A stretch of DNA of 64,000 nt from a virus. Each line of letters begins with the position of its first letter. The stretch's first letter is position 1. Position numbers and translations under genes: made by a program. The notes beneath the pieces are model-generated. The model had not been told where the DNA came from. It was given only the letters and a program-made list of their open reading frames with translations, and made no database searches. The stretch is taken from the IMG/VR virus record IMGVR_UViG_3300034018_003010. One strand, 5' to 3'. This document shows positions 22,995-60,582 of the stretch, piece by piece.

Positions 22995-24797
22995 ATGATT
23001 AATGGACAGCCTAATTTTAACCCTGGACTTACAAAAGCAAGAGCAGATCAGCTTTATTTGCCCAAAATATCTGGTTCTATAACAAGTGGATATTTAGGAA
23101 ATAGTTCAGTTCTTTCTGGAAGTATAGGCTCTGGACAAATTGGAGGATTTCACCTTTTAAGTGGATTAATACAGCCTGGAACAGGCGTTTCGATAATAGT
23201 AGATGCAAACAATAATTATGAAATATCTGCTACTGGCGGCGGATCAGTTACATCTGGATCTATAGTAAGTGGATTAATTGGAAATGAAGCCGTTGTTTCT
23301 GGAAGCATTGCATCTGGTCAAATTGGTTATATTCATTTAAATTCTGGATTTGTTTATACCACCGATCTTACAGTCAGCTTGTCATCTGGAAAAACATTTG
23401 GAAGATATATAAACGGCGAAACAATACCATCATCTGGCAAAACTCCAGTTGATGTTATACAAATGGCTATAGCAGAGCCAAAATCTCCAGATGTATTTGT
23501 ATCAGGATCTCCAATTTCGTATCTTTATGGTTTATCTTCATTTGCAAATACAATTTCTTATCAAGCAGTAATAAACACCATTGGGGCTTCTTCTAAAACT
23601 GCTTCAGTAGAATATCGCAAAAATAACACCGGAAGCTGGTCAATATTATATTCTGGCGCTATTTATTCTGGAAGCGTTCTTCATAGCGGAACAAAACTAA
23701 TAACAGATTCAGAACCATTTAATTACAGATATACATTTGTAGATTCTTCTAATATGTCTGGGCAGGCAACTGCAAATATCACAGTATCACAGCCCGCATC
23801 TCCAACTGTAAATTTAACAAGAAGCCCAACTTCTTATCTTTATGGAGCAACAAGTATAAGTAATACACTAACATATTCTGCTACAGTTAATACAAATGGA
23901 GCTTCAGGATATTTAGCAGTTCTTGAATTTAGAAGAGGCGGCGCTGGAGCATGGACATCGCTTTATAGTGGAAGCATATGGTCTGGATCATATCTTCATA
24001 CTGATACAAATACTTTTGGAAACACTTCAACATACGATTATCAATATACTTTCATAGATTCTGCAAATATGTCTGGAAGAGCTTCTGCAAGTGTTTCTTT
24101 TGGATCTTACACAGCACCATCGATAACACTCTATATCTCTGGAAGTACTATTACATCTCCAGAAACTAATTCTTTAAGAGAAATAGGCAATTATTCATCA
24201 AAACTTGGCGGCACTATTGCGAGAAACTCTTCTCTTGTAAACATGCAAACTTATCAATTGCAATTTAATTACAGTGGCTCCTCATGGATTAACATTGGCT
24301 CTTCAACAAATATTTCTGGCTCTTCTACTGTTAACTTCGGTCCAATAACACATAGCGATTCAGTTCTTTCTGGCGTTTCGACTGTAAATTACAGAGTTGC
24401 AGTTACAGATCAACAGCAAACAACTAATGGGACTACAAGTACTGTCAATTTCCTCAATATGATATGGTATGGACCTTCATCTTCTATAACTTCTGGAACA
24501 GCTACTAGTGCAAATATTAGGTCTTTATCAAACAGAATATTTACAAGTGGCTCTAATCCATTTACACTAAACACAGGAACTACAGATGATAATTTTGCAA
24601 TAGCTATGCCATCTGGCAAAACAATAACATCTGTAATTGATACAACAGCTTTGAACACAAATATTACAACGGCATATCTAAACAATCAAATTGATGTAAG
24701 CAACGCTGGGGGTAATCCTGTAAACTACAATGTATATATTTTAGATAATGCTACACCATATACAGAAAACCACGAACATGTAGTAACAAGGAATTAG
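22995..24797 (+). CDS. Fibre-like protein with Ser-Gly repeats and two Ig-like repeats
   Basis: SGSIASGQIG repeats; duplicated SYLYG...W..LYSG.I.SGS.LH...YTF.DS.NMSG.A module. Confidence 0.75.
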   Translation: MINGQPNFNPGLTKARADQLYLPKISGSITSGYLGNSSVLSGSIGSGQIGGFHLLSGLIQPGTGVSIIVDANNNYEISATGGGSVTSGSIVSGLIGNEAVVSGSIASGQIGYIHLNSGFVYTTDLTVSLSSGKTFGRYINGETIPSSGKTPVDVIQMAIAEPKSPDVFVSGSPISYLYGLSSFANTISYQAVINTIGASSKTASVEYRKNNTGSWSILYSGAIYSGSVLHSGTKLITDSEPFNYRYTFVDSSNMSGQATANITVSQPASPTVNLTRSPTSYLYGATSISNTLTYSATVNTNGASGYLAVLEFRRGGAGAWTSLYSGSIWSGSYLHTDTNTFGNTSTYDYQYTFIDSANMSGRASASVSFGSYTAPSITLYISGSTITSPETNSLREIGNYSSKLGGTIARNSSLVNMQTYQLQFNYSGSSWINIGSSTNISGSSTVNFGPITHSDSVLSGVSTVNYRVAVTDQQQTTNGTTSTVNFLNMIWYGPSSSITSGTATSANIRSLSNRIFTSGSNPFTLNTGTTDDNFAIAMPSGKTITSVIDTTALNTNITTAYLNNQIDVSNAGGNPVNYNVYILDNATPYTENHEHVVTRN

Positions 24798-24805
24798 GAT
24801 AAAAA

Positions 24806-27307
24806 ATGCCATTAACACCAGGATTACAAATACCGTTTGGAATTCAGCCAGTACAAGCAGTCCCTGTTGATTCGTGGTCTGGTCCTTATACTGGGGCTGA
24901 TTTGGCAACAGCAATAGCTGCCGCAAATTCTGCAATACCATCTGGCATCAGGTTTCAATCTATGGAAGTTCGCCTTATTGTTGGCGGAACTTCATACAAG
25001 TATTGGTATAAAAACGGAACCACAGACAGCGATTTAGTTGAATTTTCTGGAGGCGGTGTATCTTCAGGTTCGTTTTCATTAACTTCGGGAATTATTACAA
25101 GCGGATATATTGGCAATTTTGCAGTAGTTTCTGGAAGCATCGCTTCTGGAACAATTGGAACATTCCACATATCACAAAGTGCAATTAACAGCGGACAGAT
25201 CAATTCTGGAGCAGTATCTTATGGCAATATCGCTTCCGGCGCAGTAACCAGCGGAATGCTAGGAAACGAATCTGTCGTTAGCGGAACAATTGCTTCTGGT
25301 GTAATTAATCTGAATATGCTGGCATCTGGAGCCGTTTTTTCCGAAAGAACTTTAGAACAATTAAATACTGGTTTGTTATTTGGCGGTGCCTTAACTTTCA
25401 ATTCTGGAGCCTCTACATTTAACATTGGCTCTGGCACCGGAATGATATTAGTTCCTAGAGGAAACTCTTCTGGCGATCCACAATTAACATATGTTCAATG
25501 GAATCAAATTACCAATCAAACGCCAATATATTCTGGAAGTATAACATATATTTCTATTAATTCAGGCGGCGCTGTAGTAAAACAAAACGATCCATTTACA
25601 TTAAATGAATTTTTACAAGAAATTGTTTTGGGATATGTTGTTCATTTAAGCGGAACAATTATAAACAACATACATACACATCCAAGCGTTGGATATGCTG
25701 GTATTTCTCAACTTAATACATTTGCTAGAGTTTTTGGCAGTGTAAAAGTCGAAGGGCTTAATCTTTTTGCAAATGGAGCAAATCTTCAAGTAAACAGAGA
25801 AGCTGGAACTTCGTTTTCATTTGGTGGAAATTATAATTTAAACCCAAACAGCCCAAGTGTAATAACAGACTCCCAAAAAACAACAGTAAATTTTAATTAT
25901 GTTTATAGATCTGCAACACCGGGCAAATTTACTTTTGCAACTCCTGTAACAAATCTTTCTCCCGACTATTATGATGATGGAACTGGAACATTAAATCCAA
26001 TAGGTGGCGGGCAATACACAATACAAAGAGTCTTTTTTGTTCCAAACGATACAAATAATGTTTATATTTACTATGGTAGAGCAACCTATACAAGCACAGC
26101 TCTAGCAGCCCAAAACATATTTGTAGAATCATTTAGTGAAGACGGATTTACCACCAATGCTGCTGTGTTTATTGGTTATATTATTGCAAAAGGTAATGCA
26201 TCAGCATTAAATGACTCGGCACAATGCTTGTTTATTCAAGCTGGTCAATTTAGAAATACAGCAGGTGGCGGCGGTGGCGTAACAGGACAAACAATAAATG
26301 ATTTAACTGATGTTAATGCCGCAACTGCTGTAAACAACCAATTTTTGATGTATGAAGCTGGAATGTGGGTAAACAGTTATGTTACTGCAAACAGCATGGC
26401 ATCGGGATCTGTAACTTCCGGTTCAATCGCTTCTGGAAGTGTTGGGCAATACGCAATAGCATCTGGCTCAATCACAGCAGATCACATCGCATCTGGCGCA
26501 GTAATTAGTGCTGATGTTGCAGACAATGCTGTTATAAGTGGCAAGGTAGCATCTGGTGTAATTGCTTGGTTCAATCTTGCAAGTGGATTTATAACATCTG
26601 GATTAATTACAAGTGGAATGCTTGGAAATGATTCTGTTATTTCTGGTAGTATAGCTAGCGGACAGATTGGCATAAATCATTTAAGCTCTGGGCTTTTAAA
26701 TTCTGTAGCATTTACAATTAACAATGAAAGCGATAACAGAATTTTAACAAGCTTGGCTTCTGGCTCAAAACAAGCAGATGCAGAATCCAATCTGACATAT
26801 GATGGAACAACTTTAAATATTCAATCCACAGCAAGCGGATCTACTGTATTCAGCGTAGATGGAATCTCTGGAAATTTGTTTTCTATCAATGACACTCCTT
26901 ATGGAAACAATATTTTAAGTGTTGAAAACTTAAGTGGTAATTTAATATTTGCAATTAATACAGAAGGATATCAAAAAACAGTATCTTGTCTTGCTTCCGG
27001 TCAAACATCTAATGTAGGAATTTTTTCAGTTAATAAAACCGATGGAAATGCAGCATTTTTTGATTATTATTGCAAAAATACTTTATCTTATTCTTCTAGG
27101 GCAGGTAGTATTTCTGTAGTTTGGGATGAATCAAACGATATTATTGATTATACAGAAACTTCAACAAATGATATTAATGGTTCTACTGAACATTTATATT
27201 TTTCAACAACAATAGAAACAACTGGCACATATAGTGGCAAAATGGTCTTGTCAGCAAACATAAGTAGCGGTTCATGGAATATTAAAGCTGGCGCAAGAAT
27301 AGTTTAA
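24806..27307 (+). CDS. Fibre-like protein, Ser-Gly repeat family
   Basis: IASG repeats; central domain paralogous to 44193..51887; C-domain paralogous to 27439..29694. Confidence 0.8.
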   Translation: MPLTPGLQIPFGIQPVQAVPVDSWSGPYTGADLATAIAAANSAIPSGIRFQSMEVRLIVGGTSYKYWYKNGTTDSDLVEFSGGGVSSGSFSLTSGIITSGYIGNFAVVSGSIASGTIGTFHISQSAINSGQINSGAVSYGNIASGAVTSGMLGNESVVSGTIASGVINLNMLASGAVFSERTLEQLNTGLLFGGALTFNSGASTFNIGSGTGMILVPRGNSSGDPQLTYVQWNQITNQTPIYSGSITYISINSGGAVVKQNDPFTLNEFLQEIVLGYVVHLSGTIINNIHTHPSVGYAGISQLNTFARVFGSVKVEGLNLFANGANLQVNREAGTSFSFGGNYNLNPNSPSVITDSQKTTVNFNYVYRSATPGKFTFATPVTNLSPDYYDDGTGTLNPIGGGQYTIQRVFFVPNDTNNVYIYYGRATYTSTALAAQNIFVESFSEDGFTTNAAVFIGYIIAKGNASALNDSAQCLFIQAGQFRNTAGGGGGVTGQTINDLTDVNAATAVNNQFLMYEAGMWVNSYVTANSMASGSVTSGSIASGSVGQYAIASGSITADHIASGAVISADVADNAVISGKVASGVIAWFNLASGFITSGLITSGMLGNDSVISGSIASGQIGINHLSSGLLNSVAFTINNESDNRILTSLASGSKQADAESNLTYDGTTLNIQSTASGSTVFSVDGISGNLFSINDTPYGNNILSVENLSGNLIFAINTEGYQKTVSCLASGQTSNVGIFSVNKTDGNAAFFDYYCKNTLSYSSRAGSISVVWDESNDIIDYTETSTNDINGSTEHLYFSTTIETTGTYSGKMVLSANISSGSWNIKAGARIV

Positions 27308-27438: not shown

Positions 27439-29694
27439 ATGGCACATGAATTAATTGTTAAATGGGGTCTTAATGTAACTAGCGGAGAAATAAAAGGTGT
27501 TCTCGCTAGTGGCATAGTAGTCTCTGGAAGCATTGCTTCCGGTCAAATTGGAGTAAATCATTTAGCTTCTGGTGTTCTAGATTCTGTGACACCAAAATCT
27601 GGCAGTATTGTCAGCGGAATGCTTGGCGATAATTCTGTATTATCTGGAAGCATTGCTTCTGGACAAATCGGTCTAAATCATTTAGCTAGCGGCGTTGCCG
27701 ATGGCTTTACAATTACATCTGGCGAAATCGTTAGTGGACTTATTGGTGACGGCGCAGTCAACACCAATAACATTGCTTCTGGCGCAGTAAGCAGCGAAAA
27801 GCTAGCTGATGGCTCTGTTCTAACAGCAGCTATTGCTTCTGGACAAGTAACTTCAGAAAAGCTAGCCGATGGTTCTGTTCTTTCTGGAGCAGTTGCTTCT
27901 GGACAAATCGGTATAGATCATCTAGCTTCTGGAGTTCTTGACTCTGTAACTCCAAAATCTGGAAGCATTGTCAGCGGAATGCTTGGTGACGGCGCAGTTG
28001 TTTCTGGAAGCATCGCTTCTGGTCAAATTGGTGCTGATCATATTGCATCTGGCGTAATTTCAAATATTCACATGTCATCTGGAGCAGTTACAAGTGGATA
28101 CATTGGTGACGGCGCAGTCAACACCAACAATATTGCTTCTGGTCAAGTAACATCAGAAAAGCTAGCTGACGGCTCTGTATTGACAGCAGCTATTGCTTCT
28201 GGTCAAGTAACATCAGAAAAGCTAGCTGATGGCTCTGTTCTTTCTGGAAGCATTGCTTCCGGTCAAATTGGTGCCGATCATCTTGCTTCTGGTGTAATGT
28301 TTGTATTACAGTCTGGTGCTATCGTAAGTGGATACATTGGTGATGGCGCAGTCAACACAAATAACATTGCTTCTGGTGCAGTAAGCAGCGAAAAGCTAGC
28401 TGACGGCTCTGTTCTAACAGCAGCTATTGCTTCTGGTCAAGTAACATCAGAAAAGCTAGCTGATGGCTCTGTTCTTTCTGGAGCAGTTGCTTCTGGTCAA
28501 ATTGGTGCCGATCATCTTGCTTCTGGTGTAATGTTTGTATTGCAGTCTGGCGCTATCATAAGTGGATACATTGGCGACGGTGCTGTTAACACCAACAACA
28601 TTGCTTCTGGCGCAGTAAGCAGCGAAAAACTAGCTGATGGCTCTGTTCTAACAGCAGCCATTGCTTCTGGGCAAGTAACATCAGAAAAGCTAGCTGATGG
28701 TTCTGTTCTTTCTGGAGCAGTTGCTTCTGGTCAGATTGGCGCATACCACTTAGCTTCTGGTGTGATGTTCACACTAAGCTCTGGGATTGTTACAAGCGGT
28801 CATCTTGATGACGGCTCTGTAAACACCAACAACATTGCTTCTGGCGCAGTAAGCAGCGAAAAACTAGCTGATGGCTCTGTATTGACAGCAGCTATTGCTT
28901 CTGGTCAAGTAACTTCAGAAAAGCTAGCCGATGGCTCTGTTCTTTCTGGAGCAGTTGCTTCTGGTCAAATTGGCGAATACCACTTAGCTTCTGGTGTGAT
29001 GTTCACACTAAGCTCTGGCTCTATTGTTAGCGGATACATTGGCGATGCAGCAGTTGTTTCTGGAAGCATTGCTTCTGGTTCTATCGATGCCATTCACATG
29101 GTATCTGGCACATTGTTCAATGTTGTAGACGCATCTGCTGGCAGAATCCTAACAAGCTTGGCTTCTGGAGCAAATGGTGCTACAGCCGAAACCAACTTGA
29201 CCTATCAATCTGGAACACTAACTGCCGCATCTGTTGGAAGTGGCACCACAGTATTCTCAGTAACAGGACAAAGCGGAACTCTATTCTCTGTAACAGATAC
29301 AGTTTCCGATCAGGTCTTAACTGTCAATGACAACGCTGCAAACCCTGTGCTCATTGTAAGCACAGACAGCTATGTCAAGATTCTATCCGGCGTTCACACC
29401 GGAAAGACAGCAGACGATGTGGTGTTCAGCGTTGCTGACACAGCAGGTCAGGGTGGTATCTTTGATTACTGCGTAACTGAATCTGGTGGCGCTCGCAGAG
29501 TAGGAACAATCATGGCTGTATGGAACGCCGGTTCCGACACCGTTGATTACACCGAAACATCAACAAATGATCTCGGTGGCTCAACAGATGGAATCTACTT
29601 TGAAGCAGCCGTAACATCCAACAATTTTGAGTTGACTGCGAAGATCGCAACTGGAACTTGGGACATTAAGTTGTCCGCAAGACTCCTCAGCTAG
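27439..29694 (+). CDS. Fibre-like protein with five VNTNNIASG..SEKLADG repeat units
   Basis: SD gggag; 234-bp period (28261 vs 28495); C-terminal FDY...DYTETSTND.GGST domain; own terminator. Confidence 0.85.
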   Translation: MAHELIVKWGLNVTSGEIKGVLASGIVVSGSIASGQIGVNHLASGVLDSVTPKSGSIVSGMLGDNSVLSGSIASGQIGLNHLASGVADGFTITSGEIVSGLIGDGAVNTNNIASGAVSSEKLADGSVLTAAIASGQVTSEKLADGSVLSGAVASGQIGIDHLASGVLDSVTPKSGSIVSGMLGDGAVVSGSIASGQIGADHIASGVISNIHMSSGAVTSGYIGDGAVNTNNIASGQVTSEKLADGSVLTAAIASGQVTSEKLADGSVLSGSIASGQIGADHLASGVMFVLQSGAIVSGYIGDGAVNTNNIASGAVSSEKLADGSVLTAAIASGQVTSEKLADGSVLSGAVASGQIGADHLASGVMFVLQSGAIISGYIGDGAVNTNNIASGAVSSEKLADGSVLTAAIASGQVTSEKLADGSVLSGAVASGQIGAYHLASGVMFTLSSGIVTSGHLDDGSVNTNNIASGAVSSEKLADGSVLTAAIASGQVTSEKLADGSVLSGAVASGQIGEYHLASGVMFTLSSGSIVSGYIGDAAVVSGSIASGSIDAIHMVSGTLFNVVDASAGRILTSLASGANGATAETNLTYQSGTLTAASVGSGTTVFSVTGQSGTLFSVTDTVSDQVLTVNDNAANPVLIVSTDSYVKILSGVHTGKTADDVVFSVADTAGQGGIFDYCVTESGGARRVGTIMAVWNAGSDTVDYTETSTNDLGGSTDGIYFEAAVTSNNFELTAKIATGTWDIKLSARLLS

Positions 29695-29717
29695 TACTGA
29701 TTTTATGTTCAACACAG

Positions 29718-29749
29718 GAACCCCAGCCAATTGGCTGGGGTTCTTTTTT
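29718..29749 (+). terminator. Intrinsic terminator
   Basis: 26-bp perfect palindrome gaaccccagccaattggctggggttc followed by T6. Confidence 0.9.
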
Positions 29750-30563
29750 AGATTGCTCCAATTAGAAACAACCTTGTTCTTATATTCTTTCTTATAGCTT
29801 CATCTACATTTGTTGAATTGCTTATATTGTTTAATACAGCAACGACTTCCTTCCATTTTCCTTCACTTCTATTTCCATAAGCGACATAATCCAATCCAAC
29901 TTGTACAAAATTTTCCAAATCTTGATTGCGATAATATTCATTACACAAGAACCATGAATTCCATGAATTTTTTGGATTCTCTTTGTATTCTTTTTGCATC
30001 AGTTTCATATACAATGTGCCTCTTGGCTTATTGATTTCCTGATCATGAATTAAAAATATTTTATCGCTATAATGTTCATTTTCATTGCCTTGTCCTGTAT
30101 AAGACAAATATTCATAAATTGGCTGCTTCCAGACATATTGATGCCTTCTATGAATCTTATTTGTGCCTATGTGTTTTGGCTTTCCTACAAAAACTTCCTT
30201 AGAATAAATATCAAGTCTGGCACATGAAATATTATTCACAGATGAATCTTGTTTTATAATTTTTTCCATTTCTTCTAAAACATTGATGCTAAAGTATTCG
30301 TCTACGTCGGGACTCAAAGCCCAATCAACCTCTTTGGGAATCATATTTAAATTAATATTTCTAGGAATATCAAATCGCCATTCATCTGGACTTACCAAGT
30401 ATTGGTCAATAATTATGCCAGACACTTGTTTAAATGCTTCATAAGTTCCATCAGTACTTCCAGTATCTAAAATCACCCTATAGTCAAAATCCTTGGTATA
30501 ATGTACCCATTGCTCTACACGATTAATTTCGTTCTTGCAAATTGTATAAGCTGCTGTAATCAT
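29748..30563 (-). CDS. GT2-family glycosyltransferase with TPR-like tail (protein/peptide-glycosylating type)
   Basis: YTICKNE, LDTGSTDGT, RFDIPRN, DWALSPDVDE motifs. Confidence 0.85.
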   Translation of the reverse strand: MITAAYTICKNEINRVEQWVHYTKDFDYRVILDTGSTDGTYEAFKQVSGIIIDQYLVSPDEWRFDIPRNINLNMIPKEVDWALSPDVDEYFSINVLEEMEKIIKQDSSVNNISCARLDIYSKEVFVGKPKHIGTNKIHRRHQYVWKQPIYEYLSYTGQGNENEHYSDKIFLIHDQEINKPRGTLYMKLMQKEYKENPKNSWNSWFLCNEYYRNQDLENFVQVGLDYVAYGNRSEGKWKEVVAVLNNISNSTNVDEAIRKNIRTRLFLIGAI

Positions 30564-50100: not shown

Positions 50101-51887
50101 GAAGTTCAACTGCTCTTGGTGGAAGCTGGGCTGCTGCTGCTTTAACAACAGCATCTGGTTTATTAGCTGGAACATTTTATCCAAGTGGTGCATTAACCAT
50201 AGGTATTGCTTCTGGTGGAATCGTCGCTCAAATGATTGCTGACGGAACAATTACTAGTGGTAAAATTGCTTCTGGCGTATTAAGTGTTGCCGTTCTTACA
50301 TCTGGTCAAGTTGTTAGTGGAAACATCGCTTCAGGACAAGTTGGCACATTCCATCACGCTGCAGCAAGCATTCTTTCCGGTCAAATTGGTGCCAATGTTA
50401 TTGGAAGCCCTCACATTCTTTCTGGAAGTGTTGTAAATGCAAGCCTTGCAAACCCAACAGTAACAATTGCAGGAAGCAGTACTGCTCTTGGTGGAAGCTG
50501 GGCTGCTGCTGCATTAACAACAGCATCTGGCTTGTTAGCTGGAACATTCTACCCAAGTGGCGCATTAACTATCGGAATCGCTTCTGGCGGAATAGCATCC
50601 CAAATGGTTGCAGATAATGCAATTATTAGCGGTAAAATTGCATCTGGCAGCTTAACAACAAACGCATTTGCAAGCGGAACAACATTTGGAACAAGCATAA
50701 CTTCTGGATATATTACCAGTGGATATTTAGGCAATAATTCCGTTGTAAGTGGATCTGTTGCATCTGGGCAAATCGGCATAATCCATCTTGCTTCTGGAGT
50801 TTTAGCAAGCCCAGTGATTCTTTCTGGAAAAATAGTTTCTGGCAGTATTGGCAACAATGCAGTAAACAGCGGAAATATTGCCAGTGGACAAATTGGTCAT
50901 GCTCATCTTTCATCTGGATTAATCAATAGCGGAAAGATTGGGGATAATGCAGTAGTTAGTGGCAATATTGCTAGTGGCCAAATTGGAAATTTCCATATTG
51001 CTTCTGGAGCTATTACAAGTGGAGATATTGGTAACTTTGCAGTTGTAAACACAAACATTTCCAGTGGCACAGTTGCTAATGATAAGCTTGCCAATTCAAC
51101 AGTAACAATCGCTGGAAGCAGTACTGCTCTAGGCGGCTCTTGGGCTGCTCAGGCTTTGACAACAGCAAGTGGTTTGTTAGCTGGAACATTTTACCCAAGT
51201 GGTGCATTAACAATAGGAATTGCATCTGGTGGCTTAACTGCACAAATGCATGCTTCTGGTTCGGTATTGAGTGGAAGCATCGCATCTGGACAAATTGGTT
51301 TAAACCATCTTTCAAGTGGAGTTTTGGGTATAGCTGGAACTTCTGGCATGTTGCAATTCAACAACGGTGGAGCATTAGGTGCAACATCTGGCTTAATTTA
51401 CTCAATGACAAGCGGAAACAGTTTGGTACACATGCAATCGCAGACTGCATTTACAACAACACTATCCGTAAAAGCTTCTTCTGGTCAGGTTACAAATCTT
51501 CAAGCATGGACAAATACAAGTGGAAGCGCTTTAGCTTATATGGATACATCTGGTAATTTCTATGCTGTAAGCAAGAGCTTCTTGATCGATCATCCAAGTA
51601 AGCCCGGCAAAAAATTACGCCATGTTTCTTTGGAAGGTCCGTCTGCTGATGTTTATTACAGAGGAACTACTAAGGAATCACAATTTGAGTTACCATATTA
51701 TTGGAAAGATTTAGTTGATGAAAATTCTATAAACATTACATTGACACCAATAGGTTCACAGCAATTATTGTTTATTAAAAAAATAGAAAATTATATTGTA
51801 CATGTCGGGGGAACGGGATCTTTTAATTATAATTATTTTGTCATAGGAGAAAGAAAAGACATACCAAAAATTATAACAGAAGAATAA
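44193..51887 (+). CDS. 2564-aa giant Ser-Gly repeat fibre-like protein
   Basis: Dozens of (V/I)xSGxIASG units; six TIAGSSTALGGSW modules; C-terminal KSFLIDHP...LRHVSLEGP domain; SD aagga. Confidence 0.88.
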   Translation: MPQYNNKDFVIRDDLNVLSGSVIYGSMASGQIQSGMIGDSAVLNNNIASGSVDASKLASGLSFNLTSGQVVSGNIGNNAVNSGNISSGSIGQFHLASGFSIGFSSGQVTSGYIGDNAVNSGNISSGSISSFHLASGLSFNLTSGQVVSGNIGDNAVNSGNISSGSIGTNHLSAYAVNGGQINSGAVKFGTIASGAIGSGALSNASVVSGTIASGVISNDVLASGAVFSERYLEQLNTGLLYGGVISVNSGNTTFSIASGTGMVVVPRATSSGGPQLNYVQWNALTNNTPYYSGGTVTYVSINSGGSVVLQNDPFTLNEFLQEIVLGYVVHTSGNIINQIHPHPNVGYAGISQTETLIRVFGQIKVEGLDIAANGANLNINRGAGYAFAFGSNYTVNPNSPSVTTESPKTTANIIYVYRSATAGKFTFVPATTTFNPASYDNGTGTLATVTSNQWTIQRVFYVPGDTNNVYIYYGRTTYGTSNLASQNIFLEAFNEDGFTQNAAISLGYIISRGGASALNDVNDGIFIQGGQFRNTAGGGGGVTGQTLNDLTDVSVSAATNNEFLMYNGGTWLSSLVLSPSIASGAVLSGAIASGQIGTNHIAQGAITNGAIASGAVVSGKIGNAAVVSGSIASGAVSQFSIASGSITAEHIASGAVINADVADNAITSGKVASGTIGSLHISTAGVDGVNLASSSVTSGKIASGAIGFVHLASGTISTATLGSGQVISGNIASGQIGTFHIASGVLAAAPAPGLNNQLVVNRSGSNSTYSGLAVVQDYLNRPELQALTFYSWQSDAFDGGELRLNKSNASGTINLGATFDVYRDQIRIFETGGGSRGLYFDVNTGLSGTMFSLVGSGSVRSGELSPNTVWSGNIQQGQVGDIHLAIASVVSGKIASGSIGKNELSSGVISSGYLADNSVSTNAIASGSVTNAKIANPTVTIAGSSTALGGSWAAAALTTSSGLLAGTFYVSGALTIGIASGGLTAQMHASGSVLSGSIASGQIGVNHLASGTITTLTLGSGQVTSGNIASGQIGHAHLSSGLINSGKIADNAVVSGSIASGQIGNFHISNAGVLSGNIGSGQISMSHLASGTITGLSLGSGQVTSGIISSGQVGQFHLSSGAVLSGRIGNAAVVSGSVASGQIGFVHLASGTISTAILGSGQVTSGNISSGSVGSFHLADGAVQSGDIASGTVGIFHAASGTLFYVQNGITNGILTSAASGQPYATANSNLTYDGTTLEITSAASGSTAFMIVNGVETIFEVIDSQFNNILDVGDISGSAIFSVYASGLITLAPTIGEVQTNVLHVKPTVSGTVTIQTWKNASGTTVATMDSAGVFTATLASGIVVSGSIASGQIGHAHLSSGLINSGKIADNAVVSGSIASGQVGQFHISSGSITANHIASGAVITADIADNAVVSGKVASGALAWFNLSSGTVNSGNVANNAITSGNIASGQIGALHIASGVLSTSTLGSGQVTSGNIASGSIGQFHHASGSVTSGHIGNNSVVSGNIASGQIGHAHLSSGLINSGKIGDNAVVSGNIASGQVGNFHIASGAITSGDIGNFAVVNTSISSGTIANDKLANNTITIAGSSTALGGSWSPQALTTGSGLLAGTFYPSGALTIGIASGGISHQMIADGAINSGEIASGQIGQFHHASGSVTSGHIGNNAVVSGSIASGQIGHAHLSSGLINSGKIGDNAVVSGNIASGQVGNFHIASGAITSGDIGNFAVVNTSISSGTIANDKLANNTITIAGSSTALGGSWSPQALTTGSGLLAGTFYPSGALTIGIASGGISHQMIADGAINSGEIASGQVGINHLASGVLANAIPAGSSGQIQFNNGTTLGASSSLTWDGTNLSAPYLKITNASGDEGGELLLAKALTNTTLSGTGVTIDVWQNRLRFFEQGGLARGFYLDISTGANSVGTNIGALSLSSGSVVSGNIGVAVVSNINIISGTVANDKLTNSTVTIAGSSTALGGSWAAAALTTASGLLAGTFYPSGALTIGIASGGIVAQMIADGTITSGKIASGVLSVAVLTSGQVVSGNIASGQVGTFHHAAASILSGQIGANVIGSPHILSGSVVNASLANPTVTIAGSSTALGGSWAAAALTTASGLLAGTFYPSGALTIGIASGGIASQMVADNAIISGKIASGSLTTNAFASGTTFGTSITSGYITSGYLGNNSVVSGSVASGQIGIIHLASGVLASPVILSGKIVSGSIGNNAVNSGNIASGQIGHAHLSSGLINSGKIGDNAVVSGNIASGQIGNFHIASGAITSGDIGNFAVVNTNISSGTVANDKLANSTVTIAGSSTALGGSWAAQALTTASGLLAGTFYPSGALTIGIASGGLTAQMHASGSVLSGSIASGQIGLNHLSSGVLGIAGTSGMLQFNNGGALGATSGLIYSMTSGNSLVHMQSQTAFTTTLSVKASSGQVTNLQAWTNTSGSALAYMDTSGNFYAVSKSFLIDHPSKPGKKLRHVSLEGPSADVYYRGTTKESQFELPYYWKDLVDENSINITLTPIGSQQLLFIKKIENYIVHVGGTGSFNYNYFVIGERKDIPKIITEE
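48645..49628. repeat. 492-bp (164-aa) tandem duplication inside the giant fibre gene
   Basis: attggtcaatttcatcatgcatctggaagtgttacatcaggacac starts at 48645 and 49137. Confidence 0.9.
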
Positions 51888-51927: not shown

Positions 51928-54543
51928 ATGGACCAAGATGTATCAAAAACTTCAAATGCAAGTAGCTTAAATTCCAATACTGCTATTAAGTTTGTAGGAA
52001 TTTCTTCTGGTGCAAGCACTATAACATTAGGATTGAATGGTTTATCTGGAACAGCTACAGATACAATACTTTCTTATACAACTAACACAGATGAAACAAT
52101 TAGTATATCTAGTGGAATTGTCAGAACAACAAAACTTGTAGTTAAAACATCAGAAATAAATGCTCAAGAATGGCAAACATTATCTGGAAATATAGTAGCT
52201 TCAATTAATAACAGTGGATATTTTGCTGGATTTTTAGCATCTGGCGTTGTTAATTCAGAGTCGGTTTTATCTGGAAGCATAGGAACAAACCAACTTGCTT
52301 CGGGAGTTTTGCAATCAGTTCCTGCAAATATTCAATCTGGACAAATTACAAGTGGATATTTGGGGAATTCATCTGTTAATAACATAAACATAAATAGCGG
52401 AACAATTTCAAATGATAAACTTGCAAATAACACAATAACAATTGCTGGAAGTTCTACTGCTTTAGGCGGTTCTTGGGCTGCAGCGGCTCTAACAACGGCA
52501 AGCGGATTGCTAGCTGGAACATTCTACCCAAGCGGCGCATTGACTATCGGAATTGCTTCTGGCGGTGTAGCATCCCAAATGGTTGCAGATAATGCAATTA
52601 TTAGCGGTAAAGTTGCATCTGGTAGTTTAACAACAAATGCATTTGCAAGTGGAACAACATTTGGAACTAACATAACTTCTGGATACATTACTAGTGGATA
52701 TTTAGGTAATAATTCCGTTATAAGCGGATCTGTTGGCTCTGGACAAATTGGAATATATCATTTAGCATCTGGAACAATAAGTACAGCATTGCTTGGATCG
52801 GGACAAATAGTAAGCGGAAACATTGCCTCTGGTCAGATTGGTGCAAACCATCTCGCATCTGGTGTGATGTTCACACTAAACTCAGGTTCAGTAAACAGTG
52901 GAAATATCGCCAACGAAGCAGTAGTAAGTGGATCAATAGCAAGTGGCACAATATCCCAACAGCATACAAATACTTATTTCGAATTGCCTAAGAAGGGTGT
53001 AGGATCTAGCGGTTTCTTTTCTTATGCTTTAGGAGAAGGAACTTATGCTTCTGGCACAAGTTCCATTTGTATAGGAGCATTGGCTGGTGTCGGAGTCTAT
53101 AATATATCTTTTGGTAATAATTTTATTGGTTTTGGCGCAGGATACAGCAGTGGAAACGTCCAATATAAACAATTTAATGTAGGTGTAGGAAACTGGGCCG
53201 CAACCAATAATGGTTATAGCTGTACTGCCATTGGTAGTCAAGCACAATACAAATCCGGTAATTATTCAATAGCTATTGGTGCAGAAGTTAATCAGGCGAA
53301 TGAATCTTACTTTAGTGGTAGAACTACAGCTTTAACTCAAATCGGTCTAAATATATCAAATGCCAGAACATTGATTTATGGTTTGGCTAATTTTCCTCAT
53401 GGAATTAATGTTACCAATACATTAGGCGTTCTTAAAGCATACATGTCATCTGGCGGCGAGATATTCGGAACATTAGCGTCTGGATTAGTGGTATCAGGAA
53501 GCGTTGCCTCTGGCCAGATTGGTATTAACCACCTTGCTTCTGGTGTATTAGCAAGCCCAACAATTCTATCTGGAACAATTGTTTCAGGACTAATTGGAAA
53601 CAACGCTGTAAATTCAGGCAATGTTTCTTCGGGTTCTATTGATTCTATGCACATAGCTGATGGTGCTGTTGCATCTGGTGATATCGCTGCGAATTCAATT
53701 GGCAGTCCACACATACTTTCTGGAAGTATATTAAACAACAGTCTTGCAAATCCAACAGTAACAATTGCAGGAAGTTCTACTGCTCTTGGTGCTTCTTGGG
53801 CTGCTGCTGCATTAACAACATCTAGTGGTTTGCTAGCTGGAACATTCTACCCAAGTGGCGCATTAACAATAGGAATTGCTTCTGGTGGTTTGTTGCCACA
53901 AATGTTTGGATCTGGTTCAATATTGAGCGGAAGTGTTGCTTCTGGACAAATTGGTCCAGATCATTTATCAAGCGGTGCGTTAGGAATCGCTGGAACTTCT
54001 GGCATGTTGCAATTTAACAATGGTGGTGTGTTTGGTGCTACATCTGGCTTAAATTACTCGATGACAAGTGGAAACAACTTTGTTCATATGCAAGCGCAAA
54101 CCGCATTCAACACAACATTGGCAGTCAAAGCAGCATCTGGTCAAATAACAAACTTGCAATCATGGACAAACACAAGCGGCAGTGCATTAGCTTACATGGA
54201 TGCATCTGGAAATTTCTTTGCTGTTAGCAAAAGCTTTTTAATTAATCATCCAAATAAACCCGGCAAAAAATTACGCCATGTTTCTTTGGAAGGTCCGTCT
54301 GCTGATGTTTATTTCAGAGGAAAGAGTAGTTCAAATACATTTATTTTGCCAGATTATTGGAAAAATTTAGTTGATGAAAACAATATTGATATAATATTAA
54401 TACCAATAGGAAGCAAACAATCATTATATGTTGAAAAAATAGAAAATTTAATAGTGCATGTTGGTGGATGTGAAAAACCATATTATACATTTTTGGCTAT
54501 AGCAGAAAGAATTGATATGTCTAAAATTGTAGTGGAGGAATAA
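51928..54543 (+). CDS. Ser-Gly repeat fibre-like protein with YadA-like beta-roll segment and KSF..HP C-domain
   Basis: S..IG..A / AIG..A repeats; C-terminal about 250 aa paralogous to 44193..51887; TATAAATA and SD agga upstream. Confidence 0.85.
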   Translation: MDQDVSKTSNASSLNSNTAIKFVGISSGASTITLGLNGLSGTATDTILSYTTNTDETISISSGIVRTTKLVVKTSEINAQEWQTLSGNIVASINNSGYFAGFLASGVVNSESVLSGSIGTNQLASGVLQSVPANIQSGQITSGYLGNSSVNNININSGTISNDKLANNTITIAGSSTALGGSWAAAALTTASGLLAGTFYPSGALTIGIASGGVASQMVADNAIISGKVASGSLTTNAFASGTTFGTNITSGYITSGYLGNNSVISGSVGSGQIGIYHLASGTISTALLGSGQIVSGNIASGQIGANHLASGVMFTLNSGSVNSGNIANEAVVSGSIASGTISQQHTNTYFELPKKGVGSSGFFSYALGEGTYASGTSSICIGALAGVGVYNISFGNNFIGFGAGYSSGNVQYKQFNVGVGNWAATNNGYSCTAIGSQAQYKSGNYSIAIGAEVNQANESYFSGRTTALTQIGLNISNARTLIYGLANFPHGINVTNTLGVLKAYMSSGGEIFGTLASGLVVSGSVASGQIGINHLASGVLASPTILSGTIVSGLIGNNAVNSGNVSSGSIDSMHIADGAVASGDIAANSIGSPHILSGSILNNSLANPTVTIAGSSTALGASWAAAALTTSSGLLAGTFYPSGALTIGIASGGLLPQMFGSGSILSGSVASGQIGPDHLSSGALGIAGTSGMLQFNNGGVFGATSGLNYSMTSGNNFVHMQAQTAFNTTLAVKAASGQITNLQSWTNTSGSALAYMDASGNFFAVSKSFLINHPNKPGKKLRHVSLEGPSADVYFRGKSSSNTFILPDYWKNLVDENNIDIILIPIGSKQSLYVEKIENLIVHVGGCEKPYYTFLAIAERIDMSKIVVEE

Positions 54544-55229
54544 TGGGAATATATTATAATACATCAATTATAGTAAATGGCGTGGTTTTAGGCATAGACA
54601 TAGCTAATCCAAGATCATATCCTAGGTCTGGAAATACAATTGCAGACTTTTTGAACCCCTCGTCCACTTACACAATTGCTGGAACTGCTAATTTTAACGC
54701 TGGATCAGGTGGTAATATTATATTTGATGGATCTACAAATTATGTTAATTTTACTGCTCCAAATTTAGGAACAACTACAACTGTTGAAATGTGGATGGCT
54801 TTGGGTGCTGGATATAGTGGTAAAATGCCTTTTGGCTGGTTTAGATATTCTGTGTGGTGCGGATCTGGAGGAATGGGATTCAACACAGGCAACAGCGACA
54901 TGTACGGCATTAATTCAACCACCGTTTCTAATCTTGGATTAGTTGGCAATCCAAGACATTATGTTTTTGAGATGCGAAGCGATGTTTCTTACATTAATAA
55001 TAAAATGTATATCAATGGTGTTTCACAAAGTTTATCACAACAATTAGCTACAGAATTATCTGGACAGAGAAATTTCAATAGCGGAGTTGGAAGAATATCT
55101 GGCTGGACTGATACTGCAGGATATGACATGCCAATGAGTTTGTCAACATTTAAAATTTACAACAGAGCTTTAACTCAAGCAGAAATAAATACTAATTTTA
55201 ATGCATTGCGAGGAAGGTTTGGTGTTTGA
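54543..55229 (+). CDS. LamG/ConA-like domain protein 1
   Basis: D.ANPRSYP, FDGSTNYV, KIYNRALT..EI..NFNALRGRFG; TAATG overlap. Confidence 0.85.
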   Translation: MGIYYNTSIIVNGVVLGIDIANPRSYPRSGNTIADFLNPSSTYTIAGTANFNAGSGGNIIFDGSTNYVNFTAPNLGTTTTVEMWMALGAGYSGKMPFGWFRYSVWCGSGGMGFNTGNSDMYGINSTTVSNLGLVGNPRHYVFEMRSDVSYINNKMYINGVSQSLSQQLATELSGQRNFNSGVGRISGWTDTAGYDMPMSLSTFKIYNRALTQAEINTNFNALRGRFGV

Positions 55230-56595: not shown

Positions 56596-59500
56596 ATGCC
56601 ACAAGATATTTTGATTACACCAAATAAGGGAAGCAATAATTCGGGCGGCAAAATTGAATTCACAGGTTTGAATTCAGGTGCCGGTACTATTACTTTAAGA
56701 GTTTTAAACGATTCCGCCTTGTCATTCGAAGGGTCTGCTGGTCAGTTATTTTCAATTAATAATGTTCTAAGTAGTGGTACAATATTTTCTGTTAATGATG
56801 TTTCTGGCATTCCAAGCCTTGATATAAATTCAAGTGGTTTAATTAGACTAGCTCCATTTACTGGTGTTGTTCAAACAAACACAATGATTGTTCAGGCTAA
56901 TCCACAATCTGGCACACAGAACATGATGGAATTTAGGAATGCAAGCGGAACTGCAGTAGCCTCGGTCAATACAAGTGGCATGTTTGCTGGTTCTTTATCA
57001 TCTGGAATTGTGCTTTCAGGAAACATTGCTTCGGGACAAATTGGGGTAAACCATTTCGCTTCTGGTGCTATAAATTCAGTTGGAATTGCATCAGGACAAG
57101 TAAATTCAGGCAACATCGCTTCGGGTTCTGTTAGTCAATTTAAGCTGTCTTCTGGCTCTGTAAACTCAGGTCAAATTAATAATAATGCAGTTGTTTCTGG
57201 AAGTATAGCTTCTGGACAAATTGGTCATGCTCATCTTTCATCTGGATTAATCAATAGTGGAAAAATAGGAGATAATGCTGTTGTATCTGGCAGCATTGCT
57301 TCTGGAAGCGTTGGAAATTTCCACATCGCTTCAGGAGCAATTACAAGCGGAGACATTGGTAACTTTGCAGTAGTCAACACAAGTATTTCTAGTGGAACAA
57401 TTGCAAATGATAAGCTTATAAACAGCGCTATAACAATCGCAGGAAGCAGCACTGCTCTAGGCGGTTCTTGGTCGCCGCAAGCTTTGACAACAGGAAGTGG
57501 ATTGTTAGCTGGAACATTCTACCCAAGTGGTGCTTTAACAATCGGTATCGCTTCTGGTGGTATTACGAGTCAGTTAATTGCTGATGGAGCAATTAATTCG
57601 GGAGAAATTGCTTCTGGTCAAATTGGGTTAAACCATTTGGCAAGTGGTGTTTTAGCAAATGCAATACTTGGTTCAGGACAAGTTGTATCTGGAAACATAG
57701 CTTCTGGTCAAATTGGAACATTCCATTTGGCTAATGGAGCAGTTTTGTCTGGAGATATTGGTGCAAATGTTATTGGTTCTCCACATATTTTGGCTGGTTC
57801 TATTGCTAACGCCAGTCTTGCAACAAGTACAATAACAATTGCTGGAAGTTCTACTGCTTTGGGTGCTTCTTGGGCTGCTCAGGCTTTAACAACAGCAAGT
57901 GGATTACTAGCCGGAACATTCTACCCAAGCGGTGCATTAACAATCGGTATTGCTTCTGGTGGTATTACAAGTCAGTTAATTGCTGATGGTGCTGTGGCAT
58001 CTGGCGAAATTGCTTCAGGTCAAATTGGACTAAACCATTTAGCAAGTGGTGTTTTGGCAAATGCAATACTTGGTTCAGGACAAGTTGTATCTGGAAACAT
58101 AGCTTCTGGTCAAATTGGAACATTCCATTTGGCTAATGGAGCCGTACTTTCTGGAGATATTGGTGCTAATGTTATTGGAAGTCCTCATATTCTTGCTGGT
58201 TCTATTGCTAATGCAAGTCTTGCAACAAGTACAATTACAATAGCTGGAAGCTCTACTGCTCTTGGCGCATCTTGGGCTGCAGCAGCTTTAACTACTGCTA
58301 GTGGTTTACTAGCCGGAACATTCTACCCAAGTGGTGCATTAACAATTGGTATTGCTTCTGGTGGTGTTGCTAACCAAATGATTGCTGATGGTGCAATTAC
58401 TAGTGGCAAAATTGCAAGTGGACAAATTGGGGCAAACCACTTGGCTTCTGGTGTAATTGGAACAGTAACTTTAACATCTGGGCAGGTTGTTAGCGGAAAC
58501 ATTGGCAACAATGCTGTAAATTCTGGAAATATCGCTTCTGGAGTTATTGGAACAGGACATCTTTCTAGCGGTGCAGTAATAGGAAAAGCAAATACCGTTC
58601 CTACCACTGGAACAAACAATGCAAGTGGAATGTTTCAAATTACATTCGCAAGTGGTAATGCTGGTAATTCTTCGATGTATGTTTGCTCTGGTTTCTTTTA
58701 CAATCCAGCTATGAGAATGTTATTTATCGGATGTCCCGATAACGGAGGTACTTTTAGTGGCGGCATACACCTTTGGACTGGTTATAATTCAGGATTTATA
58801 AACAACACTTTGATAGGTCTTGGTGCTGGATTTGGTTCCGTAGACCATGAAATGTCAACTTTAATAGGAGCTGGTGCTGGGGCGAGTGGCAAAACAAAGT
58901 GGTGCGTTGGTTTAGGCGATTCTGCGCTACTTATGTGCAGTGGAAACGCAGATGTAGCCATAGGAGTTTCTTCTATGGCACAATCTGTAATTACGACATC
59001 ACAAGGACAAAATACAGCAGTAGGATATTTTTCTCTTAAAAATAGTCCTAAAGCTAATTATAATGTCGCAATTGGTACTAATTCATTAAATAACACTAAT
59101 TCTGGCTATCATGCAACTACAGCAGTGGGATTGGGTACAAAATCTTTTGGCGTTGGAATAGTTTCTGGTTCTATTTTTATTGGCACTTGGGCGATGGGAA
59201 TAGGAACTAAAAACGAAATAGTATGTGGATATCTTTCTTCTGGACACGGAGATGACACCATAACAATAGGAAATACACTTCATATTTCTGGTACAATTTT
59301 TGGAAACATAAATTTCCCATATGGAATTAGATTTCCTAGCGGTGGAGTGACATCTGGAGGTGTTTTTACAGCTTCTATTGGCTCAGGACTAATTCGAAGC
59401 GGTGCCATAGCATCAGGGCAAATTGGTGCAAATCATTTTGGTGCGGGAGCAATAACATCTGGATACTTCCTAAGAGCAGATGGAACCGGCATTCTATCTT

Positions 59501-60582
59501 GGGGAACAACTTCGGCAGCATCACTTACATCTGGGCAGGTTGTATCTGGTCTCATTGGCAACAATGCTGTAAATTCAGGAAATATAGCTTCTGGACAAAT
59601 TGGTAATTTCCATCTTGCTTCTGGTGCAGTTACTAGTGGAGATATTGGACAATTTGCCGTTTTAAATATTAATATTGTAAGTGGAACAGTAGCAAACGAT
59701 AAACTTACCAACAGTGCAATAACAATCGCTGGAAGTTCAACTGCTTTGGGCGGTTCTTGGGCTGCTCAGGCTTTAACTACAGCAAGCGGCTTGTTGGCTG
59801 GAACATTCTACCCAAGTGGTGCCTTAACCATCGGTATTGCAACGGCAGGCGTAGTAAACGCTATGATTGCTTCTGGAGCAGTAACATCTGGAAATATCGC
59901 TTCTGGAAGCATTGGAACATTCCATCTTGCTAATGGTGCGGTAGTATCTGGAGATATTGGTGCTAATATTATCGGAAGTCCACATATTCTTGCAGGAAGT
60001 ATAGCAAATGCTAGCTTGACAAATAGCTCTATAACAATTGCAGGAAGCTCTACTGCTCTTGGTGGTTCATGGGCTGCAGCGGCTTTAACTACAGCTAGTG
60101 GTTTGTTAGCAGGAACTTATGTTCCATCTGGTGCCTTAACCATCGGTATTGCAACGGCAGGCGTAGTAAACGCCATGATTGCTTCTGGAGCAGTAACATC
60201 TGGAAATATAGCTTCAGGACAGGTTGGTAATAATGCACTAACAAGCACAATTGCCGACAAGACGATTGTTGGAGATGTTCAGGCAATAAATTATCAATCT
60301 GGCGCTTATACACTTGTTTCTGGGGATGCTGGAAAGCTAATTACAATAAATAGTGTAAGTACAGCTAATTTAACAATTCCAACAAATGCAAGCGTTCCAA
60401 TGACAATAGGAACACACATTGACTTTATTCAGTTGGGAGCAGGTCAAGTTACAATTAGTGGAAATATTGGTGTAACTATAAATTATACTCCTGGAAATAA
60501 ACTTAGAACTCAGTATGCCGGTGCATCGGTTATTAAAATTGGAACCGATACTTGGTGTTTGGTTGGAGATATTTCAGCTTAA
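56596..60582 (+). CDS. 1328-aa Ser-Gly repeat fibre-like protein
   Basis: IASG repeats; five TIAGSSTALG modules; beta-roll N.A.G..S segment; C-terminal YTLV..DAGK...KLRTQY...DTW.LVGD domain; SD gaggt. Confidence 0.85.
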   Translation: MPQDILITPNKGSNNSGGKIEFTGLNSGAGTITLRVLNDSALSFEGSAGQLFSINNVLSSGTIFSVNDVSGIPSLDINSSGLIRLAPFTGVVQTNTMIVQANPQSGTQNMMEFRNASGTAVASVNTSGMFAGSLSSGIVLSGNIASGQIGVNHFASGAINSVGIASGQVNSGNIASGSVSQFKLSSGSVNSGQINNNAVVSGSIASGQIGHAHLSSGLINSGKIGDNAVVSGSIASGSVGNFHIASGAITSGDIGNFAVVNTSISSGTIANDKLINSAITIAGSSTALGGSWSPQALTTGSGLLAGTFYPSGALTIGIASGGITSQLIADGAINSGEIASGQIGLNHLASGVLANAILGSGQVVSGNIASGQIGTFHLANGAVLSGDIGANVIGSPHILAGSIANASLATSTITIAGSSTALGASWAAQALTTASGLLAGTFYPSGALTIGIASGGITSQLIADGAVASGEIASGQIGLNHLASGVLANAILGSGQVVSGNIASGQIGTFHLANGAVLSGDIGANVIGSPHILAGSIANASLATSTITIAGSSTALGASWAAAALTTASGLLAGTFYPSGALTIGIASGGVANQMIADGAITSGKIASGQIGANHLASGVIGTVTLTSGQVVSGNIGNNAVNSGNIASGVIGTGHLSSGAVIGKANTVPTTGTNNASGMFQITFASGNAGNSSMYVCSGFFYNPAMRMLFIGCPDNGGTFSGGIHLWTGYNSGFINNTLIGLGAGFGSVDHEMSTLIGAGAGASGKTKWCVGLGDSALLMCSGNADVAIGVSSMAQSVITTSQGQNTAVGYFSLKNSPKANYNVAIGTNSLNNTNSGYHATTAVGLGTKSFGVGIVSGSIFIGTWAMGIGTKNEIVCGYLSSGHGDDTITIGNTLHISGTIFGNINFPYGIRFPSGGVTSGGVFTASIGSGLIRSGAIASGQIGANHFGAGAITSGYFLRADGTGILSWGTTSAASLTSGQVVSGLIGNNAVNSGNIASGQIGNFHLASGAVTSGDIGQFAVLNINIVSGTVANDKLTNSAITIAGSSTALGGSWAAQALTTASGLLAGTFYPSGALTIGIATAGVVNAMIASGAVTSGNIASGSIGTFHLANGAVVSGDIGANIIGSPHILAGSIANASLTNSSITIAGSSTALGGSWAAAALTTASGLLAGTYVPSGALTIGIATAGVVNAMIASGAVTSGNIASGQVGNNALTSTIADKTIVGDVQAINYQSGAYTLVSGDAGKLITINSVSTANLTIPTNASVPMTIGTHIDFIQLGAGQVTISGNIGVTINYTPGNKLRTQYAGASVIKIGTDTWCLVGDISA
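57430..58370. repeat. 402-bp (134-aa) tandem duplication
   Basis: caaattgg...aaccattt..caagtggtgtt starts at 57619 and 58021. Confidence 0.85.

Follow-up and report, generated by a model that had tools for sequence, protein, structure and literature searches.

The dipeptide Ser-Gly (SG) recurs throughout six fibre proteins encoded in a 64,000-nucleotide stretch of viral DNA (IMG/VR record IMGVR_UViG_3300034018_003010; the whole stretch is hereafter called the window), and the question raised by this locus is whether these serines are attachment sites for sugars or simply part of how a fibre is built. A first-pass annotation had read SG as the acceptor signal of a phage glycosyltransferase (GT); the main rival to that reading, and a serious one, is that SG is a structural turn motif. 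The window is AT-rich (33–40% GC), gene-dense DNA of an uncultured phage whose genome we estimate at about half a megabase, since 91-kb contigs of its IMG/VR relatives have a completeness rating of 15%, and its fibre genes are interleaved with glycosylation genes. We found that Ser-Gly is selected at the protein level in this lineage: the enrichment is lineage-specific and continuing, and it is seen in a single class of fibre protein, in stalks and tips alike.

Ser-Gly enrichment in the fibre proteins

All six proteins belong to the virion fibres of this huge, uncultured phage, and their stalks are made from a five-residue repeat, S-G-x-(I/V/L)-x (the pentad). None of the six open reading frames (ORFs) matched a Pfam family, their matches being to the tail-fibre PHROG families 892, 13518 and 28766. 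They begin where the first-pass annotation had placed them, the last ending at position 60582, and are given here with observed SG counts, the counts expected from the composition of each protein, and z-scores from sequence shuffles:

22995..24797 (+), fibre protein, 600 residues; 28 SG against 10.3 expected (z 6.8)
24806..27307 (+), fibre protein, 833 residues, with two pentad blocks; 41 against 13.1 (z 9.1); phrog_16641 and the tail-fibre family phrog_892
27439..29694 (+), fibre protein, 751 residues, ~70% pentad repeats; 61 against 17.1 (z 12.8); phrog_13518, 892 and 28766
44193..51887 (+), giant fibre protein, 2,564 residues; 201 against 58.5 (z 21.3)
51928..54543 (+), fibre protein, 871 residues; 59 against 18.0 (z 10.8)
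56596..60582 (+), fibre protein, 1,328 residues; 95 against 29.6 (z 14.5)

SG thus exceeds its compositional expectation in every one of these proteins (z 6.8–21.3) and, pooled, occurs 485 times against 146.7 expected, an observed/expected ratio (O/E) of 3.30, while the reversed dipeptide GS ranges from 0.98 to 1.65 per protein. Pooled over the six fibres, TG (O/E 0.38), NG (0.34), AG (0.61) and QG (0.18) are all depleted, GS, SS, SA and ST do not exceed expectation, and DG is mildly enriched (1.36). The remaining 42 ORFs of the window have pooled SG and GS values of 0.91 and 0.83, which rules out a genome-wide composition or dipeptide bias as the source of the excess, and per-protein counts agreed with the first-pass annotation that SG is sparse in two poly-Thr proteins and in the enzymes of the window. 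A DNA-level motif or a recent duplication is likewise ruled out: the serine codons at SG are 66% TCN and 34% AGY, the same mix as at other serines, and 21 codon pairs are used. Because the serine codons are mixed in this way, SG has been conserved at the protein level and recent copying of DNA offers no explanation. The accompanying claim of hundreds of sites per fibre holds for the 2,564-residue protein (201 per chain), but for the others only if sites are counted per trimer.

In the stalks the claimed regularity is plain, as 373 of the 479 SG-SG intervals are multiples of five, the unit being SGx(I/V/L)x, and SG fills positions 1–2 in 50% of the 688 pentads of the window fibres. A tblastn search with the 27439 protein gave matches to tail fibres in 80 phage records, and profile comparison also recovered the homology of the repeat (phrog_13518 at 2.7e-66, phrog_892 at 3.9e-47). 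Five phages served as a comparison set, namely two 45-kb T7-like cyanophages that are poor in GTs, DSS3_VP1, a Geobacillus phage, and Arthrobacter phage Mimi; these have SG at positions 1–2 in 0–3% of their pentads, with T/D/N/A at position 1 and A/G/D/N/S at position 2. The first-pass annotation had singled out GT-free phages as a comparison of consequence, and homologues from small GT-free phages turned out not to conserve the SG positions, the T7-like cyanophages carrying D/T/N-x where the window has SG. The wider pentad/decad family of phage tail fibres (phrog_892, 13518, 28766; cyanophages P-SSP3 and NATL2A-133) has a homologous repeat of equal period with I/V/L at every fifth residue, but D/T/N/A-x at positions 1–2 and Lys at position 3, whereas the window lineage has SG and is nearly uncharged. 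In the stalk repeat SG probably takes the positions that face outward or form turns. The AlphaFold2 (AF2) monomer model of the 22995 protein has pLDDT below 50 at stalk residues 1–57 and 81–114. PDB sequence matches included no solved structure of the stalk, and those to Ika8 and Ika4 were rejected as spurious (WD40-like, low-complexity).

The excess extends beyond the repeats, and the examples that the first-pass annotation had quoted from non-repeat domains are all found in the sequences. Outside runs of at least four pentads (2,902 residues) SG occurs 102 times against 37.8 expected (2.7-fold), with GS at 1.06 and the next dipeptide at 1.57; the ratio is unchanged (67 against 24.4) without the 44193 and 27439 segments, which include obvious paralogues. 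Cryptic pentads are mostly ruled out, as a hydrophobic residue stands at +3 in 46% of these SG, compared to ~100% in pentads and 34% at other serines, and in 4 of the 18 SG in the globular part of the 22995 protein.

The 22995 protein consists of an N-terminal SG-pentad stalk (residues 1–126) followed by a chain of FN3/Ig-like sandwiches; in its AF2 model (pLDDT 81.7) the globular part matches FN3/Ig, and for 17 of its 18 SG sites a strand end is no more than three residues away. We gathered 115 homologues of this globular domain, most of them on collagen or other stalks. The 12 with SG-pentad stalks have 8–18 SG where 2–7 are expected, while the 104 outgroup homologues, which have the same folds, give a pooled O/E of 1.22; the excess therefore tracks lineage and not fold. 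The SG-rich proteins form a single clade in a tree computed with SG masked (SH-aLRT 92), and alignment of the shared domains, a check that the first-pass annotation had suggested, showed SG replacing other residues only in the lineage with SG-pentad stalks. Within the clade ~10 SG sites are private to the query's subclade, ~8 are private to its sister and 4–5 are common to both. At columns where the outgroup rarely has SG, clade proteins have a median of 7 novel SG sites compared to 1 in the outgroup. Of eleven dipeptides tested SG alone is shifted in this way, the other ten being controls, and the ancestral pairs at the 23 novel columns are diverse, including T-S, S-V, V-G, N-G, D-G, K-T and I-L. 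In the globular domains attached to the stalks, SG has been gained repeatedly at the ends of strands. The 51928 protein has a C-terminal domain, unrelated to the globular part of 22995, with 7 SG where ~2 are expected; relatives down to 58% identity all have 7–8, and those at ≤43% identity a median of ~2. In related phages (P0197–P0201) this 51928/44193 C-terminal domain is joined to RCC1 propellers and still has 7–8 SG and ~15 SG pentads.

The fibres also share modules with one another and with proteins of related contigs. The first ~80 residues of the 24806 protein (window 24806-25050) recur at 68–79% identity as the N-termini of fibres, different in their other parts, in four IMG/VR contigs (L006–L009), and this common N-terminus looks, from its sequence, like a virion-attachment adaptor. 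A strongly conserved module of ~65 residues, TIAGSSTALGGSW...YPSGALTIGIASGG (the AGSSTALG module), is present in 13 copies, two of them in 51928, five in 56596 and six in the 44193 giant (AGSSTALG...YPSGALTIGIASGG), and is 53–77% identical in IMG/VR contigs L098–L105.

Candidate enzymes in a glycosylation cassette

The glycosylation genes of the window, and those that accompany them, are as follows:

29748..30563 (-), GT2-family GT (PF13704)
32263..32916 (+), DXD-type GT (PF04488)
33487..34551 (+), UDP-GlcNAc 2-epimerase (PF02350 at E 2e-91)
34548..35926 (-), two GT25 GTs, 34548-35315 and 35243-35926 (PF01755), kept in the cassette
35928..36722 (-), sulfotransferase (PF13469, PF00685), kept in the cassette
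36715..37080 (-), small TPR protein, 121 residues, its position kept in L014–L017
37077..38438 (-), candidate protein O-glycosyltransferase, TPR (residues 1–180) plus GT-B of GT9 type (195–453)
38431..39882 (-), TPR plus GT9-type paralogue, 33% identical to the 37077 protein, with the same invariant residues
39884..40429 (-), cassette member, 181 residues, with weak methyltransferase and GT-B-half matches
40476..41372 (+), NAD-dependent sugar epimerase, HldD-like (Pfam Epimerase; TIGR02197)
61199..63903 (+), weak GT2-like ORF and two GT4, downstream of the last fibre

The AF2 model of the 37077 enzyme (pLDDT 94.5) has an all-helical N-terminal TPR array (1–180) fused to a C-terminal GT-B domain (195–453), which is the architecture of FlmG, OGT and SPINDLY (SPY). 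Foldseek searches with the full-length model identified the protein O-GTs XcOGT, SPY and OGT (E 1e-6 to 1e-4), and those with its catalytic half identified WaaC, WaaF and TibC. In a VIA structural comparison of the catalytic domain the top eight matches were all ADP-heptose transferases (WaaF Z 18.2, a Veillonella GT9 17.6, WaaC 16.5–16.9, TibC 15.8–15.9), followed by two plant NDH subunits (~14.3) and by other GT-B proteins at 12.4 or less; TibC superposed on the model over 240 aligned residues at an rmsd of 3.0. Across 45 homologues of the TPR-GT9 enzymes 19 positions are invariant, among them, in both paralogues, G208-x-G210-D211, which the model puts six residues after strand 200–205 (a placement by strand order). 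The catalytic Asp of GT9 enzymes lies in a G-D motif following the first strand; that of WaaC is Asp13. As modelled, the two cassette enzymes have a protein O-glycosyltransferase architecture with a heptosyltransferase-type core. Their sequence profile matched PDB entries in the TPR part only, and in the only cultured phages with such an enzyme its annotation reads TPR protein or hypothetical protein. The best match of the 40476 epimerase, which is transcribed divergently from the TPR-GT9 genes, is to TIGR02197 (ADP-glycero-manno-heptose 6-epimerase; E 5.4e-48), with GalE next (2.9e-23).

The cassette is conserved on related contigs L014–L017, where it comprises the 181-residue protein, two TPR-GT9 enzymes, the small TPR protein, the sulfotransferase and two or three GT25s; the TPR-GT9 pair is kept in these contigs and in G004. 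In addition, a GT4 cluster similar to that downstream of the last fibre adjoins the SG-rich fibre P0092 in L010. A 590-residue DUF7487 plus Mom-like protein lies immediately upstream of the cassette in two of the contigs (L016:6061-7845 and L017:6989-8749) and adjoins a T4 gp13-like neck protein.

Several known systems resemble parts of this arrangement. AAH and TibC, acting on AIDA-I and TibA, are cytoplasmic GT-B enzymes of heptosyltransferase fold that hyper-glycosylate serines of a nearby-encoded repetitive beta-solenoid surface protein (PMC4358343), features that are predicted here. TibC heptosylates Ser, not Thr, in beta-helix repeats; the first-pass annotation had cited these enzymes as acting on SG(G) sequences, which is half right, as one mapped TibA site is N-S-G-G and the other is T-S-A-A (PMC4358343). 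These bacterial autotransporter heptosyltransferases (BAHTs) also have a beta-hairpin thumb and assemble into a dodecameric ring, the phage enzyme here being modelled as a monomer. They have an N-terminal flattened beta-barrel (PMC4358343) where the phage enzymes have TPRs, and their four-Cys iron finger has no counterpart, there being no invariant Cys among the 45 homologues and the Cys positions differing between paralogues; because both features are absent, we do not regard the phage enzymes as BAHT members. The substrates differ as well, being for BAHTs an autotransporter with an acceptor that is not strictly SG, and here, putatively, phage fibres. FlmG, which has the same domain order as the phage enzymes, binds its protein substrate through its TPR domain (PMC7591256); however, the phage catalytic domain is nearer to GT9 heptosyltransferases than to GT41, and FlmG uses CMP-pseudaminic acid as donor and has no short sequon (PMC7591256). 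Judging from the model and from these analogies, the phage enzymes may combine a BAHT-like catalytic fold with the substrate-holding mode of FlmG and OGT.

On the side of the substrate, SgtA is encoded beside the gene of the BclA3 exosporium fibre and O-glycosylates the hydroxy residue that precedes Gly in its GPT repeats, Ser being accepted in place of Thr (PMC7157674). The SgtA-BclA3/BclA system shares with the window a repetitive surface fibre, a hydroxy residue before Gly, a neighbouring GT and many sites (PMC7157674), but it is sporal, with a collagen GPT scaffold and a GT of a different family, whereas the fibres here are viral and made of a pentad beta repeat and Ig-like domains, without any collagen G-X-Y triplets. 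Collagen-like triplet scaffolds do occur in relatives (L006, L009, L087, L095 and G022), (G-x-S)n and (G-x-T)n giants among them. The giant (G-x-S)n proteins (L006:11921-19063, L009:12971-16567, L087:16790-20926 and L095:3083-4345) contain up to 610 SG in 2,381 residues, often have an aromatic residue or Ile at X, and are encoded close to a homologue either of the fibre N-terminus or of the TPR-GT9 enzyme. Collagen-like (G-x-Q)n proteins flank TPR-GT9 homologues (18 ORFs, e.g., L027:1557-6629, L028:2133-5876, G013:138351-144509 and G020:108809-127148); these have an aromatic residue, His or Asn at X, an unusual triplet composition without a hydroxy residue.

Xylosylation of Ser-Gly in eukaryotic proteoglycans, to which the first-pass annotation had appealed, is similar in having Ser-Gly as O-glycan acceptor and a sulfotransferase in the pathway; this is an analogy only, which fails on the acidic flanks (D+E 3.5% in the pentads), and no xylosyltransferase-type GT was detected in the window. 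Viral GTs decorate the virus's own structural proteins in the glycosylation of mycobacteriophage capsids and tails, but we know of no virus-encoded virion glycosylation in which a short dipeptide acceptor saturates the substrate. Our literature search found no description of SG-saturated phage fibres, of phage virion glycosylation with an SG motif, or of a phage TPR-GT9 protein glycosyltransferase. The fibrils of giant viruses resemble the case considered here in that the virus's own set of GTs decorates its own structural proteins, with different hosts and enzymes (reviewed in PMC9614988).

A proposed Ser-Gly sequon weighed against its rivals

We propose that Ser-Gly may be an O-glycosylation acceptor site, which would be modified in the infected cell by the cassette beside the fibres. 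The TPR-GT9 enzymes (37077-38438 and 38431-39882) would dock on the fibre by their TPR domain and add the first sugar to Ser, and this sugar would probably be a heptose, in view of the fold match and of the HldD-like epimerase encoded next to them. Its extension and sulfation would follow, carried out by the GT25s, other GTs and the sulfotransferase, the outcome being tens to hundreds of glycans per fibre chain. Each of these steps is plausible because of published precedents, i.e., the modification of Ser by TibC, including in N-S-G-G, and that of the residue before Gly by SgtA. We hold the proposal as a whole tentatively, giving it rather less than an even chance, although it is the likeliest of the explanations considered.

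Single-sequence locus searches with 37077 and 27439 gave no matches, and loci were recovered instead with an enzyme profile and with the conserved SG-fibre module. Contigs G013, G014 and G030 carry an enzyme of 35% identity with arrays of SG-pentad fibres 13–30 kb away; arrays of 5–6 SG fibres accompany the enzymes in G004 and G013, and in G004 five SG giants are encoded directly upstream of the TPR-GT9 pair. Among seven contigs found via the SG-fibre module, which are 3–38% complete, three carry the enzyme or its catalytic domain. Directly upstream of the G004 array is a gene for a 3,742-residue mucin-like giant (G004:1618-12843), mostly of (S/T)-P repeats ("SPSPTPSPSPS...").

Several observations weigh against the proposed sequon. 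SG-rich ORFs lie within ±10 kb at 5 of 79 viral loci with enzyme homologues, a figure that understates co-occurrence because whole-contig searches found SG fibres at the larger distances given above. The co-occurrence is limited to one phage lineage, so that its instances are confounded and not independent; all positives being in one lineage, they reflect co-inheritance, a pattern that an enzyme-substrate pair would fit but that does not prove the pairing. SG-rich fibres are absent from six complete genomes whose TPR-GT9 homologues are more distant, and G020 has only (G-x-Q)n collagen-like proteins, which could not be O-glycosylated at that position; the collagen-like proteins of G022 are rich in T-G and S-G. 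Other Ser- and Gly-rich virion proteins of the window lack the excess, namely the LamG/Gly-rich 41397 protein (O/E 0.78), the RCC1-repeat protein (0.42), and 55226 and 55885 (~1.0), neighbours of the virion-protein paralogue at 54543. As to the enzymes, the Pfam GT9 model PF01075 gives no match at E ≤0.01 on either paralogue, although the distant homologues P0185, P0188, P0190 and P0191 do carry it and the language-model (atlas) neighbours of the enzymes are clusters of TPR plus PF01075; the 40476 epimerase, at 163.8 bits, is under the HldD equivalog cutoff of 274.6; and the GT clusters of cyanophage-like genomes are also read as modifiers of the host surface. Finally, position 2 of the pentad is always small in homologues (A/G/S/N/D) and lies on the same strand face as the buried position 4, so that Gly there may be a packing requirement, while DG, enriched as noted, fills the same slot as would be expected of an Asx/ST-turn cap; Gly at position 2 with a Ser/Asp cap at position 1 also fits a purely structural turn.

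It is from these last points that the structural rival starts. It holds that Ser caps an ST-turn, that Gly takes the tight inward position of a beta-helical or triple-stranded stalk, and that neither is modified; this lineage would have fixed S-G where others have D/N/T/A-x, repeat amplification would have spread it, and the GTs would have other targets, such as host surface glycans, DNA or the mucin-like poly-Thr proteins. A structural role accounts for the small position 2 behind a polar cap (T/D/N/S/A) at position 1, for the interchange of Asp and Ser, and for the location of globular SG at strand-loop junctions, where turn-formers belong; it also agrees with the preference differing by lineage (A-x makes up 86% of the Arthrobacter phage pentads), with the presence in the window of poly-Thr proteins, which are more conventional O-glycosylation substrates, and with the distant TPR-GT9 homologues in genomes without SG fibres. 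What it does not easily explain is that the same folds in the outgroup are nearly free of the excess, that NG and TG, the other classic turn pairs, are depleted, and that in the Ig-like domains SG took over from non-turn pairs (S-V, T-V, V-A, K-T and I-L), with gains continuing independently in two subclades. We regard this explanation as a real possibility, if on balance a somewhat improbable one.

An SG-rich, nearly uncharged surface might instead have a physical or binding role while unmodified, by being hydrated, non-sticky or flexible, or by recognizing host polysaccharide directly. The excess is indeed confined to fibre proteins, and charged residues (D+E+K+R) make up 5.0% of the window pentads compared to 16–20% in the cyanophage, Geobacillus and DSS3 homologues; however, Mimi is equally low in charge by way of Ala-rich repeats, and such a role leaves the order, Ser then Gly, unexplained when GS, SS, SA and ST show no excess, so that we consider it improbable. 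The least probable of the explanations considered invokes a neutral founder effect and concerted evolution, in which recombination homogenised one amplified SG repeat among paralogous fibres and the rest is hitch-hiking or chance, for while repeat blocks and whole modules (the AGSSTALG module with its 13 copies) are common to the six proteins and the SG-rich homologues of the 22995 domain are one clade, SG is written with both serine codon classes and 21 codon pairs, is in excess in non-repeat domains of different folds, is alone among eleven dipeptides in its novel sites, and occupies unlike positions in the two subclades.

Neighbouring genes and wider meaning

The other genes of the window to which we paid attention are these:

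3..305 (-) and 9885..13373 (-), the two poly-Thr proteins (60% and 36% Thr)
1984..4284 (+), S8 subtilisin-family protease gene split by an intein that carries a LAGLIDADG homing endonuclease (PF00082, PF14890, PF14528)
4602..9842 (-), RCC1-repeat protein, 1,746 residues
15507..16430 (+), phiEco32-like COOH-NH2 ligase homologue, between structural blocks
16393..17130 (-), Prim-Pol domain protein, likewise between structural blocks
54543..55229 (+), virion-protein paralogue, 228 residues, with a borderline SG excess (7 against 3.0)

The poly-Thr proteins, like the RCC1-repeat protein, have no SG excess; these proteins may be a second class of substrate for the GT genes.

A wider claim can be made from the proposed sequon, that a clade of half-megabase freshwater phages has a Ser-Gly sequon read by TPR-tethered, GT9-type O-heptosyltransferases, giving a proteoglycan-like glycocalyx of hundreds of sulfated glycans over the pentad-repeat fibres and their Ig-like tips, with SG gain continually selected and the enzymes co-evolving with their substrate; in this full form we think it unlikely. 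Should the SG motif be purely structural, a repeat position and unrelated domains would have drifted jointly to one dipeptide, and a structural explanation would be needed for that. If instead SG is the acceptor, the system would belong among those in which a neighbouring GT is dedicated to hyper-O-glycosylating a repetitive surface fibre. No O-glycosylation sequon known from virus particles would be shorter or denser, and no phage would previously have been assigned a protein O-glycosyltransferase of heptosyltransferase fold. The pair of enzyme and tag would be a compact one for glyco-engineering, virion glycan coats would become predictable from sequence alone, and the large GT clusters of huge phages could be given a proposed function.

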